Below the pieces are notes generated by a model. That model was not told the DNA's origin. It made no database searches and saw only the letters and a program-made list of their open reading frames with translations. This document shows, piece after piece, positions 18,700 through 60,830 of a stretch of DNA of 64,000 nt. Numbering within the stretch: position 1 is the first letter of the stretch; every line of letters starts with the position of its first letter. The translations under genes were made by a program, and so were the position numbers. The stretch is from Octopus sinensis (Eukaryota), in NCBI RefSeq assembly GCF_006345805.1, contig NC_043008.1:64418001-64482000 (forward strand), written 5' to 3'.

Positions 18700-19830
18700 A
18701 CGGATAAAGCATGATGTGTGAGCAGATGAGTTGTCCTGGTGCAGCATCTAAATTTTGTTTATTCATGTCTCGGTTCTCTTCCATTTCACTGCCTTTCTAA
18801 AAAGCTTCAGGGCATAAAATTGTAATCACATGAAATACATTCATGATACACGACAACCTTCTACTCTGAAAAATCAGTCAACATATTCTTACATTTTATG
18901 GGGCTGTGAGTGATATCCTATATTTGGTTATGATGATATTGTTCTAAACTGAAGGCGGCGTGCTGGAAGAAACGTTAGCACGCCGGGTGAAATGCTTAGC
19001 GGGATTTCGTCTGCCGCTACATTCTGAGTTCAAATTCCGTCGAGGTCGACTTTGCCTTTCATCCTTTCGGGGCCGAATAAAGAAGTACCATTTACGCACT
19101 GGGGTCGATGTAATCGACTTAATCCGTTTGTCTGTCCTTGTTCGTCCCCTCTGTGTTTAGCCCCTTGTGGGTAGTAAAGAAATAGGTATTTCGTCTGCCA
19201 CTACGTTGTGAGTTCAAATTCCGCCGAGGTCGACTTTGCTTTTCATCCTTTCGGGGTCGATTAAATAAGTACCAGTCACGCACTGGGGTCGATATAATCG
19301 ACTAATCCATTTGTCTGTCCTTGTTTGTCTCTGTGTGTAGACCCTTGTGGGCAGTAAAGAAATAGATATTGTTCTAAACTTCACTTCCCACTTTGCAATG
19401 ATTGCCTGTTTGCTTCGACTTCTCTGCCTTGCACACACGTTGATACATTCCAAAAAAGGATTTCATCAGCTTTTGAGCGATCAAACAGCAAGATCATATT
19501 CTTGTTAGTGCGGCACAAATTTTCAGTAGCACGATGCCTCTTCAACTTTCCTATAAGAATCTTGTGGTACGAATTTTTACAGATGCTAACTCCATCGGAA
19601 AACCACGCCTACACAGTTTTGCATTGTAATCGACGTCCATTGTCACGGAAGCTGTTCTGATTTGGTATCGTCTTCCGTACATGGTCTTTGCGACTGAAAA
19701 TTTGATCCCATTTGTAACACTGCATGCAGACCGAAACTCATTCCCATAAACCTTCCGCGTAAGTTTATCTAATTTGTATCCTTTAATACTGGATTAACGT
19801 CAAATAAATAGTCTCGTGCATTCACCATGC
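18700..19830 (-). mobile_element. decayed mariner transposase, interrupted by a SINE dimer
   Basis: Minus-strand motifs appear in the expected order: RKVYGNE, EDDTKSEQ (like EDDPRSGRP), KFVPH (like WVPH), KNMLTDF..KVVVYHEC and MLHQDNSSAHTS (like LHHDNAPAH). Confidence 0.7.
18954..19364 (+). mobile_element. SINE A dimer flanked by a 16-bp TSD
   Basis: A full unit plus a second unit starting at GGTATTTCGTCTG. GATATTGTTCTAAACT occurs at both 18935-18950 and 19365-19380. Confidence 0.9.
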
Positions 19831-31681: not shown

Positions 31682-31722
<41 letters not shown>

Positions 31723-31765
31723 GATAAATATCAGAGTGTGTTATCAACAGTAGCAGAAACACATC

Positions 31766-32122
31766 GTGATGTAAATATGCCATTTGAATATGGCTAACCC
31801 CTAAGGGTGGATGCTATTGTAGTTTTTAGCCTTCAATATCAGTGTCACTGAACACTGGAAAAAGTATATGTATTTGTAAAGAGAAACTCCTTCCTGTCGA
31901 CAACTGTGATTGTCACACGCTGATGATAGGTCAATACCTTGAAACTCGAGTCCGTGTGTATCATAAGTTGAAGACGGGAAGGATGGCTTCCCTTTGCAAA
32001 TACTGATAGGGCACAGAAAGTGCGTCTATAGCCAGCTGGAGGAGATGTCTTCCTGGGGCTAAAAACTACAGTAGCATCCACCCTTAGGGGTTAGCCATAT
32101 TCAAATGGCATATTTACATCAC
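31766..32122 (+). mobile_element. fold-back, ribozyme-bearing element (PLE pseudo-LTR or retrozyme-like)
   Basis: 66-bp terminal inverted arms (31766-31831 and 32057-32122, one mismatch), extensive internal pairing and a hammerhead at the apex. Set between (TA)n tracts. Confidence 0.7.
31901..31970 (+). ncRNA. type I hammerhead ribozyme (minimal stem III, PLE type)
   Basis: CACACG-CTGATGA-T AGGT CAAT ACCT T-GAAA-C TCGA G-TC-CGTGTG. Stem I is a perfect 6 bp and extends further, the core is intact, the cleavage triplet is GUC (cut after 31952), and stem III carries the palindrome CTCGAG. Confidence 0.8.
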
Positions 32123-32261
32123 TATATATATATATATATATATATATTTATAATTAATCAATATAGGGTGGCAAAAAATTTTGTAGAATTTTTTTGCCAC
32201 CAGCGGCCTAGTGGGAAAAAATTAAATAGTCATAGACCATTTTTAAGTTCAACATCACAAT

Positions 32262-32484
32262 CAAGGAACGGCCATAATAGGCCATTCACCCACTAGAAAT
32301 AACAGCCAAAAGCTTCAACCGCAAAATAACATCAATTCCGTAAACCAGGAGAAAATTAAAAAACCAGGAGAAAATTAAAATGTTTTTTAATTTTCTCCTG
32401 GTTTACGGAATTGATGTTATTTTGCGGTTGAAGCTTTTGGCTGTTATTTCTAGTGGGTGAATGGCCTATTATGGCCGTTCCTTG
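32262..32484. repeat. essentially perfect ~102-bp inverted repeat with 19-bp spacer
   Basis: 32262-32363 is the reverse complement of 32383-32484. The spacer duplicates the arm end (CCAGGAGAAAATTAAAA). Confidence 0.92.
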
Positions 32485-32492
32485 GTGTGATA

Positions 32493-32544
<52 letters not shown>

Positions 32545-40035: not shown

Positions 40036-40701
40036 AGGTACAATAGGTTAGAACGTGAGCTGTATCCACAGGAAGCACTTCTGAGAATACGAGCAATGAG
40101 TTCTATAATTACATGTCCAAAGACAGTTTATAGTTAAGAAGAAAACTATACACAAGCTGCAATTCTGGTATAAATATATTGGATGCTGAGTATGAATACA
40201 TTAAATCAAAACCTGGAATTTATGGTACTATGTTGAATGTTGTAGTTACAATTGTTTGAGTACAGCGTGGGAAATCCGTTTCACAAATATAAATATTAAA
40301 ATGACTATGATAAATTCGTAATATTATAATATTTCTGCATAAAATTTTTAGGTACATATGTGGATTTCTTCAGAATAAGCTTTAAAAATAATATGATCGA
40401 CTCTTAGGATGCCACTATAATTATAGTTTACATAATTTATCAGGAGCGGTAAAGAGAGATAAAGGGAAGAAATACAGGAGATGAATACAGAAAGAGGGGA
40501 GATATTGTGAGCGAAAAGGAGAAAGAATAAAAAAACTAATATTGGTAACATACATATCCACACATTCATATTTACAGACACTCACATATATCTACATCCA
40601 CATATTGTGATACATGTTGCATTACTTAAAATTTTATTTAATCTTGTGGTATTTCTTCAGATATATATACTTTTAGTGTATTGACAAGGGATATATATAC
40701 A

Positions 40702-40932
40702 GGCGGCAAGCTGGCAGAATCGTTAGCACGCCGGGCGAAATGCGTAGCCGTATTTCGTCTGCCGTTACGTTCTGAGTTCAAATTCCGCCGAGGTCGACTT
40801 TGCCTTTCATCCTTTCGGGGTCGATAAATTAAGTACCAGTTACGCACTGGGGTCGATGTAATCGACTTAATACCTATGTCTGTCCTTGTTTGTCCCCTCT
40901 ATGTTTAGCCCCTTGTGGATAATAACGAAACA
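40702..40932 (+). mobile_element. young full-length SINE A
   Basis: Near-consensus GGCGGCAAGCTGGCAGAATCGTTAGCACGCCGGGCG...GCCCCTTGTGG. (GATATATATATAC)A-like flanks may be a TSD. Confidence 0.9.
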
Positions 40933-40959
40933 GATATATATATACAAAATAGTTTTCAT

Positions 40960-51230: not shown

Positions 51231-51713
51231 ATTGATTATATATACACATGCGCATTCGGGCACAAACACACACACATAGGTGATACATTTATATACACAA
51301 ATTCACACACGCACACACATATGAGTATGCATGTATGTTTACGTATAGAAATATATCACTATCACGTTAATCATCATTATCACCATCACTGTCGTCGTTT
51401 TAACCATCTAACTTCTGTTTTCCATGCTGGATTGGTCAGGTGGATATTGTTTAGTCAGATAAATCGGATGTATGAGTGTAATATATATATCTATATGTGT
51501 GTCTATATACATTTGTGCGTATGCATGTGTGTTATATATGTACCTTTTATCTTTTAGTTTTTCTAAGACATCGGACTGTAGCTGTGCTGGGACCTGCTTC
51601 GTAAGGATTAGTCACACAAATCAGTTCCAGAAGCCATCTTTTATATGTGAAACTTATTCAATCGGTTTCTTTTGGTATGCTATGGGGACCATTTCTTATA
51701 TTTCATATATATT

Positions 51714-51943
51714 TCTTTTTACTGCCCACAAGGGGCTAAACAAAGAGGGGACAAACAAGGACAGACAAACGGATCAAGTCGATTACATCGACCCCAGTGC
51801 GTAACTGGTACTTAATTTATCGACCCCGAAAGGATGAAAGGCAAAGTCGACCTCGGCGAAATTGGAACTCAGAACGTAACGGCAGTCGAAATACGGCTAC
51901 GCATTTCGCCCGGCGTGCTTACGTTTCTGCCAGCTCGCCGCCT
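51714..51943 (-). mobile_element. young full-length SINE A
   Basis: Reverse complement of the 40702 and 18954 copies. Confidence 0.9.
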
Positions 51944-52122
51944 TGTGAGTACTTCCAATATGATTGGGACATGTTTCTATGCTTCATTTATGATGTTTTG
52001 AATGAATTTGCAGTTGGTCCCATGTAAGATTGAGACATTTTATTTGTGTTCATTTCAAAGTAAATAATTCGTTAAAACAGAGTATGCTTATTCAACCATC
52101 TACTATAGTCAGTTTGTAAATT

Positions 52123-52360
52123 TTAGGCAGTTGAATGAGAACCATGGAGTTTGCTTCGGTTCATATTCGTCAATGCTTGTGATACATTTGATGTGATACA
52201 GTAGGATACTTTTATGAAAGACTTTAAGAAAACTTTTGTAATATTTGTGATAAGAAGGCATACGTTTTGCAGAAGATTAAAGAATAATTTAGCTACCGGG
52301 TTAGTGTCACGCAACTTATAAGGAGGATTAAACCAGATAATTTGATTTCTATCATTGTCC
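52123..52360 (-). mobile_element. Penelope-like element fragment (region between RT and GIY-YIG)
   Basis: RNQIIWFNPPY...VAKLFFNLL...IKVSYCITSNVSQ matches the PLE motif 'IIWFNPPF...F..L...KVSYSCM.N'. Weaker RT-like remnants may extend to ~53400. Confidence 0.7.
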
Positions 52361-55852: not shown

Positions 55853-56728
55853 AGTGTTGGACAAAATAATGGAAACACCTAGCATCATTGCATCATAATT
55901 TTGAAATATCCATAAAACTACCAAAGCTTGATTTTATTTATTTATTTATTACTAGTGTTGCTTAATATGTTTTGCTAAAATTGCGGTTTCTTTCCAGATA
56001 TCATCAGAAAAAAGGTAATTAAAATTCATTAAAATAACAGATTTATCGAACTTTTAAAGAGGTCGAATTGATGATACTCGTATGACAGGCGCAAGCGTAA
56101 CGAAAACAGCCGAAAGGTTGGTGTATCACGAAGTACTGTCTCGAAAGTAAAAACAGGCTTTGAGAAAGAGGGAAAAACCTCCTCGTCGAAACAAAACTCC
56201 GGAAGGAAACGAAAACTTTCAGACAGGGACCGTCGGACTCCTACGCGAATTGTTAGAAAGGATCACAATAGTACAGATCCCAAAATTACTGCAGAGCTTA
56301 ACGACCACCTCGAGAACTCAGTTTTCCACAAAAACTGTTCGCCGGGAGCTTCACAAAGCCGAATTTCACGCGAGGGCTGCAATGAGAAAACCACTACTTT
56401 CAAAAACAAATGTTACAAAGCGTTTGGAGTGGAGTAAAAACCTACAGAATTTGTCCCTAGATTAGTGGAAGAATGTTATTTTCTCGGACGAGTTATTCTT
56501 TACCCTATTTCCAACCACTGGCCGAATATACGTGTAGAGACAGCAAAAAAAAAAAAAATTGACACAGACTGCTTTCTTCTAACTGTTAAACATGGAGGAG
56601 GATCTGTGATGACCCGGGGTGGGGGGGGGCTATATCTTAATTTTATCTGATCAAATTCATGCTATGGTTGTCGAAACGCAATCTTTCAGGATGACAATGC
56701 ACCAATTCACGCACCTAAAATTGTTACT
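55853..56728 (+). mobile_element. decayed Tc1-like transposon (left TIR and transposase pseudogene)
   Basis: TIR-like AGTGTTGGACAAAATAATGGAAACACC. Translation across frameshifts gives TDLSNF*RG...GRKRKLSDRDRR...STKTVRRELHK...RKPLLSK...RLEW...WKNVIFSDE...TVKHGGGSVM...IFQDDNAPIH. Confidence 0.9.
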
Positions 56729-59734: not shown

Positions 59735-60830
59735 TACATTGGCTTTATTAAGAAGAAATTATCAAGTTCTACAAGATATCCCCGACATCCGCCCTGGATA
59801 CCATTAACACCAACCAGTGAAAATTAGTAAAAAAATCTTGGAGTAGACGATCGCATGGATCCCTACAACCCAAGAGCCCCGCATTTCAACCTTAAAGACC
59901 ACAAAACGGATTTCATAACGAAATCCTCTATTAGGCTCATCTGCCCTACCAAATCGGATGAATCATTAAGATTATACTAGACAATAAAATACCTATAGTT
60001 AGAATAAATTAGGCGTCAATTCATGGTCCTTCACAGAAGTTATGACCTAATTTCACCTCCTCGAAAACAAAAACACTTCCTCATTCCTGCAAATTGATAT
60101 CAACAATAACTACGCATCTATAACCCTTATCCTCCTTAACAAAGCTCTCATTCTAGCTTAAAACTTAACTAACCTAACCCCTTTAGAAATAGACGTAATT
60201 ATAACTGCCAGAAATACACTCATCTCCTTCAATGATAAGCTTTGGTGCCAAGCCACCCTCAATAATAATAGCACCAGTTTCTTCGATATAACCATAGGCG
60301 CTTAATTTTTTTTTTATTTTACTTTCTTTCGCTCTCATTCATCCTTTCCTGCACCTACCCCATTCCTGTCTTTTCTCTCTTTTGTTCTCTTTTTCTCCCT
60401 CTTTTCTTTCTTTTTCTTTTCGCTTCTATCCACTCACCCACAACCCACTTCTCTCTATCTTAATGTTTGTCTTTCTCACTTTAAGTATATACCCACGTGG
60501 ACCATTTACACTTAATCCATTACTTCAACATGAACGCATCATTCAAAATACTGCCTGGATTTACATGGGATTATACTTAAGGGCCTATACCTTCACGGAA
60601 GTACGGACCAATCTCCTATTAACTTTATCCTCTTGTTTGTATTCTATCTACATTTACTCTCTATTCTTCTATTTCATTCCTTATAAACTGCGAATTTCCC
60701 TGTCTGGAACTTTCATTTTTACTCACATTGTTTCTGATGACGGAATACCCAGTGATATATATTACTAAAAATCTCACTAACTAGCGGCCAACTCCAACAC
60801 CATCGTCGCCTTTATTAGAATTATTATGAA
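59735..60830 (+). mobile_element. Penelope-like element remnant (RT fragment plus pyrimidine-rich 3' region)
   Basis: LKDHKTDFITKSSIRLICPTKSD...IDINNNYASIT..LLNKAL...IDVIITARNTL...LW...FFDITIGA matches PLE RT motifs (KDHK, RLI.P.KS, DI..FYPSI, FDVTMG). CTGATGA occurs near the 3' end. Confidence 0.8.

Follow-up and report, generated by a model that had tools for sequence, protein, structure and literature searches.

The closest described relatives of the element analyzed here are the metazoan non-LTR retrozymes, which are tandem repeats of a ~350-nt, low-GC monomer that carries one type I hammerhead ribozyme per unit, with a 2 bp helix III capped by a tetraloop and a predicted circular RNA that pairs with itself (Cervera and de la Peña, 2020; PMC7229834). 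The nearest of those described in its text are the ~350–390 bp repeats of mussel and the axolotl Rtz_353/HHR_Amex2, which as described has the same U·U mismatch as the element below. The mover of animal retrozymes was left open in the text of that paper, and mobilization by Penelope-like elements (PLEs) has since been argued, mostly for vertebrates, from co-occurrence and pLTR similarity (Li, Clavereau, and Pollet, 2026; 10.64898/2026.07.22.740005). An inverted 5' copy, a one-sided tail, and a bias toward (TA)n are known features of PLE insertions (Craig et al., 2021; 10.1101/2021.04.23.441226). The protein of the anole PLE Poseidon cleaves AT-rich DNA on both strands and extends each of them, and reverse transcription begins at two internal RNA start sites between which the tail lies (Frangieh et al., 2024; PMC11167929). 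Target-specific LINEs of the Tx1 clade are a further point of reference: Tx1 inserts into Tx1D, Tx1-Mar into Mariner-N4, and Keno into U2 (Kojima, 2015; PMC4494074).

We analyzed a 64,000-nt stretch of the Octopus sinensis genome (the window) and consider it highly probable that an element near its center is a truncated copy, with a single ribozyme, from a family of 352-nt tandem repeats; the element is likely a non-LTR retrozyme, and a PLE enzyme would have placed it in a (TA)n run. The family shares with the retrozymes of Cervera and de la Peña (2020) the monomer and ribozyme features listed above, and it differs in that cleavage and circles are predicted here from sequence only. We share with Li et al. 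(2026) the conclusion that PLEs move the retrozymes, and here too monomers outnumber arrays; in contrast to the lines of argument in the text of that study, ours relies on the anatomy of insertion ends, and we found no pLTR homologue in 104 PLE-anchored loci. The text of Cervera and de la Peña (2020) contains no analysis of PLE-type ends. The copies resemble insertions of EN+ PLEs and of anole Poseidon, as far as these are described in the sources, in their 5' truncation, partial tandems, inverted 5' copies, a tail confined to one end, a target that is AT-rich or (TA)n, and two internal reverse transcription start sites, but the element lacks an ORF and its tail measures 42–53 nt rather than 30–40 nt. 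No cephalopod retrozyme is reported in the literature that we covered, and the supplements of PMC7229834 and of the bioRxiv papers may already list such a family.

The insertion is bordered by (TA)n at both ends, and its inverted piece and main copy meet in a blunt head-to-head junction at 31831/31832. The element (31720–32122) contains no frame of 120 aa or more and no ORF combining RT and GIY-YIG, and the anatomy of the copies shows that there is no LTR pair. A preliminary description of the locus had placed the ribozyme core, stems I–III, the UGU/U internal loop, the outward helices, the side hairpins, and the cut site correctly, and the 66-nt arms that it reported do pair up almost perfectly. 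The other boundaries had to be redrawn. The element does not start at 31766, because a 46-nt inverted tail had been overlooked; the 357-nt rod that was taken for the mobile RNA is not the unit, which is the 352-nt tandem monomer; and RNA-level structure is not supported for the terminal arms, which are a locus-specific inverted duplication that is missing in most copies and varies in length. The window copy has a single ribozyme, not two consecutive ribozyme-bearing units, and it lacks monomer positions 47–61, so it is unable to release a monomer. It is most likely a dispersed offspring and a dead end.

Table. Features of the window and of related loci. Window positions count from the first nucleotide of the 64,000-nt stretch; positions after an L number refer to that locus.
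Feature	Position	Strand	Basis
(TA)n microsatellite, left part of target	31685–31719	.	Sequence
46-nt tail of inverted copy (monomer 1–46); long (B) 3' end, pointing outward	31720–31765	-	98% to monomer 1–46; same end in many copies
Inverted 5'-truncated copy (monomer 287–352); left arm of the preliminary description	31766–31831	-	65/66 match; variable or absent in other copies
Main copy (monomer 62–352), 5'-truncated; short (A) 3' end	31832–32122	+	96.9% to L011 monomer; close copies 96–98%
Rod: stem I and outward extension	31870–32003	+	Folds; pair counts
Insertion position of APE-type LINE in relatives; vacant in window copy	31893–31908	+	LINE 3' end meets monomer position 125–126
Type I hammerhead	31914–31958	+	Sequence, patterns, covariation
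Hammerhead stem I	31914–31919/31953–31958		
Hammerhead core	31920–31926		
Hammerhead stem II, with U·U base	31927–31940		
Hammerhead GAAA	31941–31944		
Hammerhead stem III: 2 bp, palindromic tetraloop			
Predicted hammerhead cut	After C31952		
(TA)n microsatellite, right part of target	32123–32145	.	Sequence
Decayed PLE ORF fragment, relative of L218 family	51979–52356	-	tblastn
Decayed PLE ORF fragment, relative of L218 family	59837–60302	+	tblastn
Fixed-site LINE insertions	L301:939–6448, L317:925–6440, L303–L313, L321–L332, L220:3212–8690, L252–L262		

Several other repeats lie in the window. Directly beside the element (32150–32495) is a copy of a very young 488 bp tandem family, many of whose matches are 99%–100% identical over 215 nt; its inverted anatomy and (TA)n ends are like those of the element, no canonical hammerhead core was present in the one locus scanned, and it could contain another type of ribozyme. 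A dispersed repeat of ~240 bp, probably a SINE or MITE, occurs in both orientations (~40701–40939, 51705–51943, 59–296, and 18952–19189), and positions 56075–56437 contain a frame that is putatively a fragment of a Tc1/mariner-like transposase.

The 352-nt tandem monomer is present in at least 265 copies in the genome, which comprises 2.72 Gb and is rich in microsatellites. A DNA search with the window element gave 147 matches from the 40 that were scored out of 2453 candidates; they mostly begin at query position 67, and a spacing of ~350 nt recurs in many. Units within arrays are 348–355 nt long with a GC content of 0.40–0.43, inside the retrozyme range (150–450 bp, GC below ~45%–50%), and are arranged head to tail in arrays of 2–7. 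Li et al. (2026) call a retrozyme "active" if at least two consecutive units carry a ribozyme, and by this measure the family qualifies: at least two consecutive direct ribozyme units were found by hand in nine of 77 loci (L011, L031, L077–L080, L082, L154, and L155), which could serve as sources. The units of an array are 0–10 substitutions apart, so that a circular and a linear multimeric template are not separable. Cousin retrozyme families (L220:8680–8932, L222–L251, and L303–L314) differ in stem I and show core variants (U4C, U3) as well as further loop III sequences that are self-complementary. In four sequencing runs guessed to be RNA, contigs extended over 23–30 of the 30 bins of L011:1150–1850, with a depth of 0–32 in the flanking bins, and in two of the runs (X1 and X3) a single contig, the deepest of those that cover the second ribozyme, has a G-C stem II base; contigs cannot reveal ends or circles, and we do not treat these data as evidence.

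The hammerhead in the window is real. Helix I has 6 bp, helix II has 4 bp over the U·U mismatch, and helix III has 2 bp with a palindromic tetraloop, which corresponds to the canonical metazoan type I form as set out in PMC4209133 and not to the minimal PLE-type hammerhead of the preliminary description. The Rfam search that had been suggested matched no hammerhead family, either at the gathering threshold or at E ≤ 10. Two exact core patterns had 215 and 265 matches in the genome and none when read backward, so the hammerhead occurs in excess of chance. We aligned 44 of 86 units (alignment A1), all of which had been selected by core pattern, so that conservation of the core within A1 is circular. 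Pairing was found in 89.9% of the cells of A1, a level reached by none of 500 shuffles and compared with 36%–50% in slid controls, and in 10 of the 46 pairs both partners change, stem II among them (G-C in 22, A-U in 20); these covariation counts are inflated by related copies, and the cells stand for few independent events. When units were chosen instead by overall similarity, 33 of 47 had an intact core. Loop III, which was unconstrained in the first pattern, reads YCGR in 228 of 265 copies; further variants that recur (CCGG, TGCA, TATA, and TA) are self-complementary as well, as dimeric cleavage requires. Covariation in stems I and II and the self-complementarity of loop III agree with the earlier expectation of probable cleavage as a dimer, and we regard self-cleavage as likely. 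Additional, unrelated hammerhead-like cores are present in flanks (L164, L227:813, L152, and L199).

The preliminary description called the activity of the ribozyme unproven on account of the noncanonical U·U on which stem II rests. The mismatch exists, and base pair 10.1–11.1 is unpaired in 34 of the 44 aligned copies, but it is a lesser worry than it seemed, because in axolotl HHR_Amex2, which lies in a 350 bp repeat and has an identical U·U, cleavage reached 22% for the monomer and was better for the dimer (PMC7229834), and because this position is occupied by C·A, A-U, G-C, G·U, or U-A in sister subfamilies. Among the retrozyme dimers for which Li et al. (2026) describe assays, only one of nine cleaved. 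Depending on the subfamily, stem II rests on U·U, C·A, A-U, or G-C, and this natural variation offers a ready activity series. A different defect, G5A, is present in seven of the 47 units chosen by similarity, six of them from one array; in the seven-unit array L031:4012–6639, all six units listed carry it. This substitution is expected to abolish hammerhead cleavage. It likely arose by CpG decay before the array was amplified, and its presence in all six units listed means that amplification may not need cleavage.

Folding of the window element gave a z-score of −20 with the arms, a value that is inflated by the inverted duplication, and of −5.65 without them; the reverse strand gave −5.66, and because both strands behaved alike we dropped the z-score as evidence for a strand. 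The plus strand is favored only by the G·U patterns and by 5.5–16.5 kcal/mol in six of six circular monomers. Folded as circles, six natural cut-to-cut monomers had z-scores of −4.0 to −7.4 and formed a rod plus a branched domain with 62%–67% of positions paired; the fold in which a monomeric hammerhead would be active is not the minimum-energy fold.

The ends of the insertions carry the main evidence for PLE mobilization. In loci picked by similarity or pattern, and hence nonrandom, 80 insertions had 118 outward 3' ends, 98 of which lie at one of two sites: site A, at monomer position 352, or site B, 42–53 nt (about 46) beyond A. The 98 ends adjoin (TA)n in 74 cases, and both 5' truncation to varying extents and inverted 5' copies were directly observed. 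Because the automatic classifier mislabels ends with indels, A and B ends of the inverted insertions were tallied by eye from the flanks, with a single entry each for L034, L036, and the local duplicates of L032 and L040. Among 38 nonredundant inverted insertions, 23 paired an A with a B end, one had two A ends, and none had two full tails; the other 14 had a partial or rearranged tail (four), one end elsewhere (nine), or an end cut by Ns (one). A tail was thus confined to one end in 23 of the 24 clear two-ended insertions (p = 1.5e-6 under independent choice of ends). Single-ended insertions were divided between A (17) and B (19). The hallmarks of a PLE-mobilized insertion, namely an inverted 5'-truncated copy, a one-sided tail, and a (TA)n target, are therefore all present. 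In the in vitro reactions described for anole Poseidon (PMC11167929), both strands use both start sites alike, whereas the genomic copies here pair one A with one B, and this strict rule of one tail per insertion limits the ways in which priming on the two target strands can take place. Taken with the copies and arrays, the end anatomy supports the earlier proposal of a noncoding, PLE-mobilized retrozyme beyond what could be argued from the window.

A young 3.8 kb PLE family (L140–L149) is a candidate mobilizer of the retrozyme. Its copies are 98%–99.8% alike, with frames of 775–777 aa that encode GIY-YIG and RT domains (the RT just under the Pfam cut-off); it has a hammerhead variant of its own, in which stem II likewise rests on a U·U, and its two ends lie ~30 nt apart in (TA)n, with one of each in both of the inverted insertions seen. 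With a young, apparently intact PLE of matching end grammar at hand, the partnership is directly testable by the published in vitro assay. A second PLE family with 781-aa frames is also present. No sequence common to the monomer and an autonomous PLE was found in 104 PLE-anchored loci, many of which span only 1.5 kb. Three loci were rejected as direct links. L009 (1–1834), considered as a PLE ORF with its pLTR, is a retrozyme that inserted into the 3' region of a member of an older PLE family; the 24 other loci of that family have no retrozyme, and ~100 bp of the target are missing 5' of the insertion. At L140 the retrozyme lies beside an intact PLE, separated from it by a microsatellite, and is absent from nine sister loci, and at L186 it is a separate insertion. 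The relics near 52123 and 59735, which had been proposed as remnants of the mobilizing enzyme, are indeed PLE-type ORF fragments (tblastn E values of 3e-9 and 3e-20 to a PLE-like ORF), but they have no DNA similarity to the element, and nothing links them to it.

These observations can be accommodated by the following model. Arrays would be transcribed as multimers, in which neighboring hammerheads would pair through the self-complementary loop III and cut as dimers to give 352-nt monomers, and a host ligase may circularize these as in the coral, mussel, and axolotl retrozymes. A PLE RT/GIY-YIG protein would then cut both strands of a (TA)n site and prime inside the RNA at two start sites, which lie ~170 and 216 nt downstream of the ribozyme cut and would each serve one target strand. 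Once the two cDNAs were joined at their truncated 5' ends, the left side would carry the tail and the right side none, and what look like "terminal arms" would result, as at the window locus.

A weak match led to a cousin retrozyme family (63%–65% alike over ~150 nt, with the same end anatomy) and to a 5.5 kb LINE inside it, which has a CCHC ORF1 and an APE-RT-zinc ORF2 (Pfam zf-CCHC, just under the cut-off, Exo_endo_phos, RVT_1, and zf-RVT); the copy in L306 has a 1134-aa open frame. A search with LINE-only sequence from that copy was scored for the best 40 of 864 candidates. In 32 of these 40, the LINE lies at one fixed site, ~25–35 nt upstream of the hammerhead core. A ribozyme unit of this superfamily comes directly after it in 29; the other three are followed by the target motif along with a further LINE-like copy and have the upstream half of the retrozyme on their 5' side. 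Of the rest, one is at the start of a U2 gene and seven are elsewhere. Fifteen loci have a full-length LINE between both retrozyme halves with a 14–17-nt repeat. A pattern for the junction matched 12 times (control, 0), in every case with the LINE upstream and monomer position 125–126 downstream, and the retrozyme sides of these junctions are 71%–92% alike to the window family. Fixed-site insertions occur in at least four related retrozyme families, that of the window included, and LINE-LINE tandems were found at the same site in L302, L309, and L318. In the U2 case (L315:7082–7283), the LINE lies where a U2 snRNA gene (Rfam, 184 bits) begins at its 5' end. The first nucleotides of this gene are similar to the retrozyme target, and the 5' junction of the LINE carries a retrozyme-type motif.

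On this sequence record, the LINE appears to target the retrozyme family. LINEs 98% alike are found in hosts 74%–76% alike (identity values for nonhomologous hosts are meaningless and were disregarded), and one 99% alike is in U2, so that hitchhiking alone is insufficient to explain its distribution. Among 11 loci, five have truncated LINEs with unrelated 5' flanks and one has a LINE joined to an inverted retrozyme; some of these LINE-retrozyme composites look as if they had been carried by a PLE. The 5' repeat in L315 and L317 fits a donor-type site and not the local one, which suggests that the LINE RNA starts within its donor. As the CCHC ORF1, the APE-RT-zinc ORF2, and a target-site preference are found in the Tx1 clade, we infer membership in that clade from domain order rather than from a tree; no Tx1 name is among the 120 matches listed for a LINE of this genome, where the closest named relative is an Argonauta protein. 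Like the Tx1-clade elements described by Kojima (2015), it is an APE-RT LINE that occupies a fixed site in a multicopy element, can insert in tandem there, and has one U2 copy, but its site lies in a hammerhead retrozyme, a short distance upstream of the ribozyme. The ribozyme remains intact ~60 nt beyond the LINE end, and one hypothesis is that the LINE makes use of the host hammerhead. A tentative extension, which we think possible but more likely wrong than right, is a three-tier chain of parasites: a PLE would move the retrozyme; a Tx1-like LINE would have specialized on the site before the hammerhead and, co-transcribed with the arrays, would borrow host hammerheads to excise its own RNA with target-matching ends; and the PLE would carry the composites to new sites. 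Insertion of site-specific LINEs into other transposons is already known, and the unexpected result here is a LINE lineage at one fixed site in this retrozyme family and its cousins; the literature that we covered, which leaves most subscription papers and Repbase reports out of scope, reports no ribozyme repeat as the target of a site-specific LINE.

Among other explanations for the window element, the one that retains most plausibility, although we consider it improbable, is a PLE-mobilized repeat that no longer needs its hammerhead, in which linear read-through RNA moves and circles never form. The G5A array L031 and the weak base of stem II fit this reading, as do the insertion of an anole PLE in vitro without a need for cleavage (PMC11167929) and the neighboring 488 bp family, in which the same end architecture goes with the lack of a canonical core in the one locus scanned. 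A dispensable ribozyme is, however, hard to reconcile with compensatory changes in stem II and with repeated self-complementary variants of loop III across subfamilies that are 65%–98% alike. The element might alternatively be the 3' pseudo-LTR of an autonomous PLE that was heavily truncated at its 5' end and has no independent life. Its end grammar is PLE-like, PLE diversity was sampled in part, and 24 of 57 Xenopus retrozyme families match annotated transposable elements, nearly all of them PLEs, in the account of Li et al. (2026). Against this, the 5' extension in 77–79 loci is another monomer, an inverted copy, or unrelated DNA, the single locus with an upstream PLE ORF (L009) is an insertion into the older family described above, and the ribozyme is canonical and not of the minimal PLE type; we therefore think a pseudo-LTR origin decidedly unlikely.

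Physical proximity of the LINE and the retrozymes could also suggest a SINE-like element moved by the APE-type LINE of its relatives, but the LINE sits within the monomer with short flanking repeats, and the A and B ends of the retrozyme lie in (TA)n without any likeness to the LINE 3' end, which leaves this reading very little probability. Least probable of all is a MITE-like DNA transposon with 66 bp terminal inverted repeats or an integrated viroid-like rod RNA, as the near-perfect arms, the TA flanks, and the z-score of −20 might suggest at first sight: head-to-tail arrays exist, the arms are mostly absent, vary in length, and here carry a one-sided tail, and the copy set, which has no constant terminal inverted repeats, refutes such an origin. 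A non-LTR retrozyme inserted by a PLE enzyme is thus the reading that we prefer. For this family, the footprint of a PLE is visible in the insertion ends and two start sites are defined, and the value of the element lies in this direct genomic evidence for PLE mobilization and in the LINE that apparently targets it.
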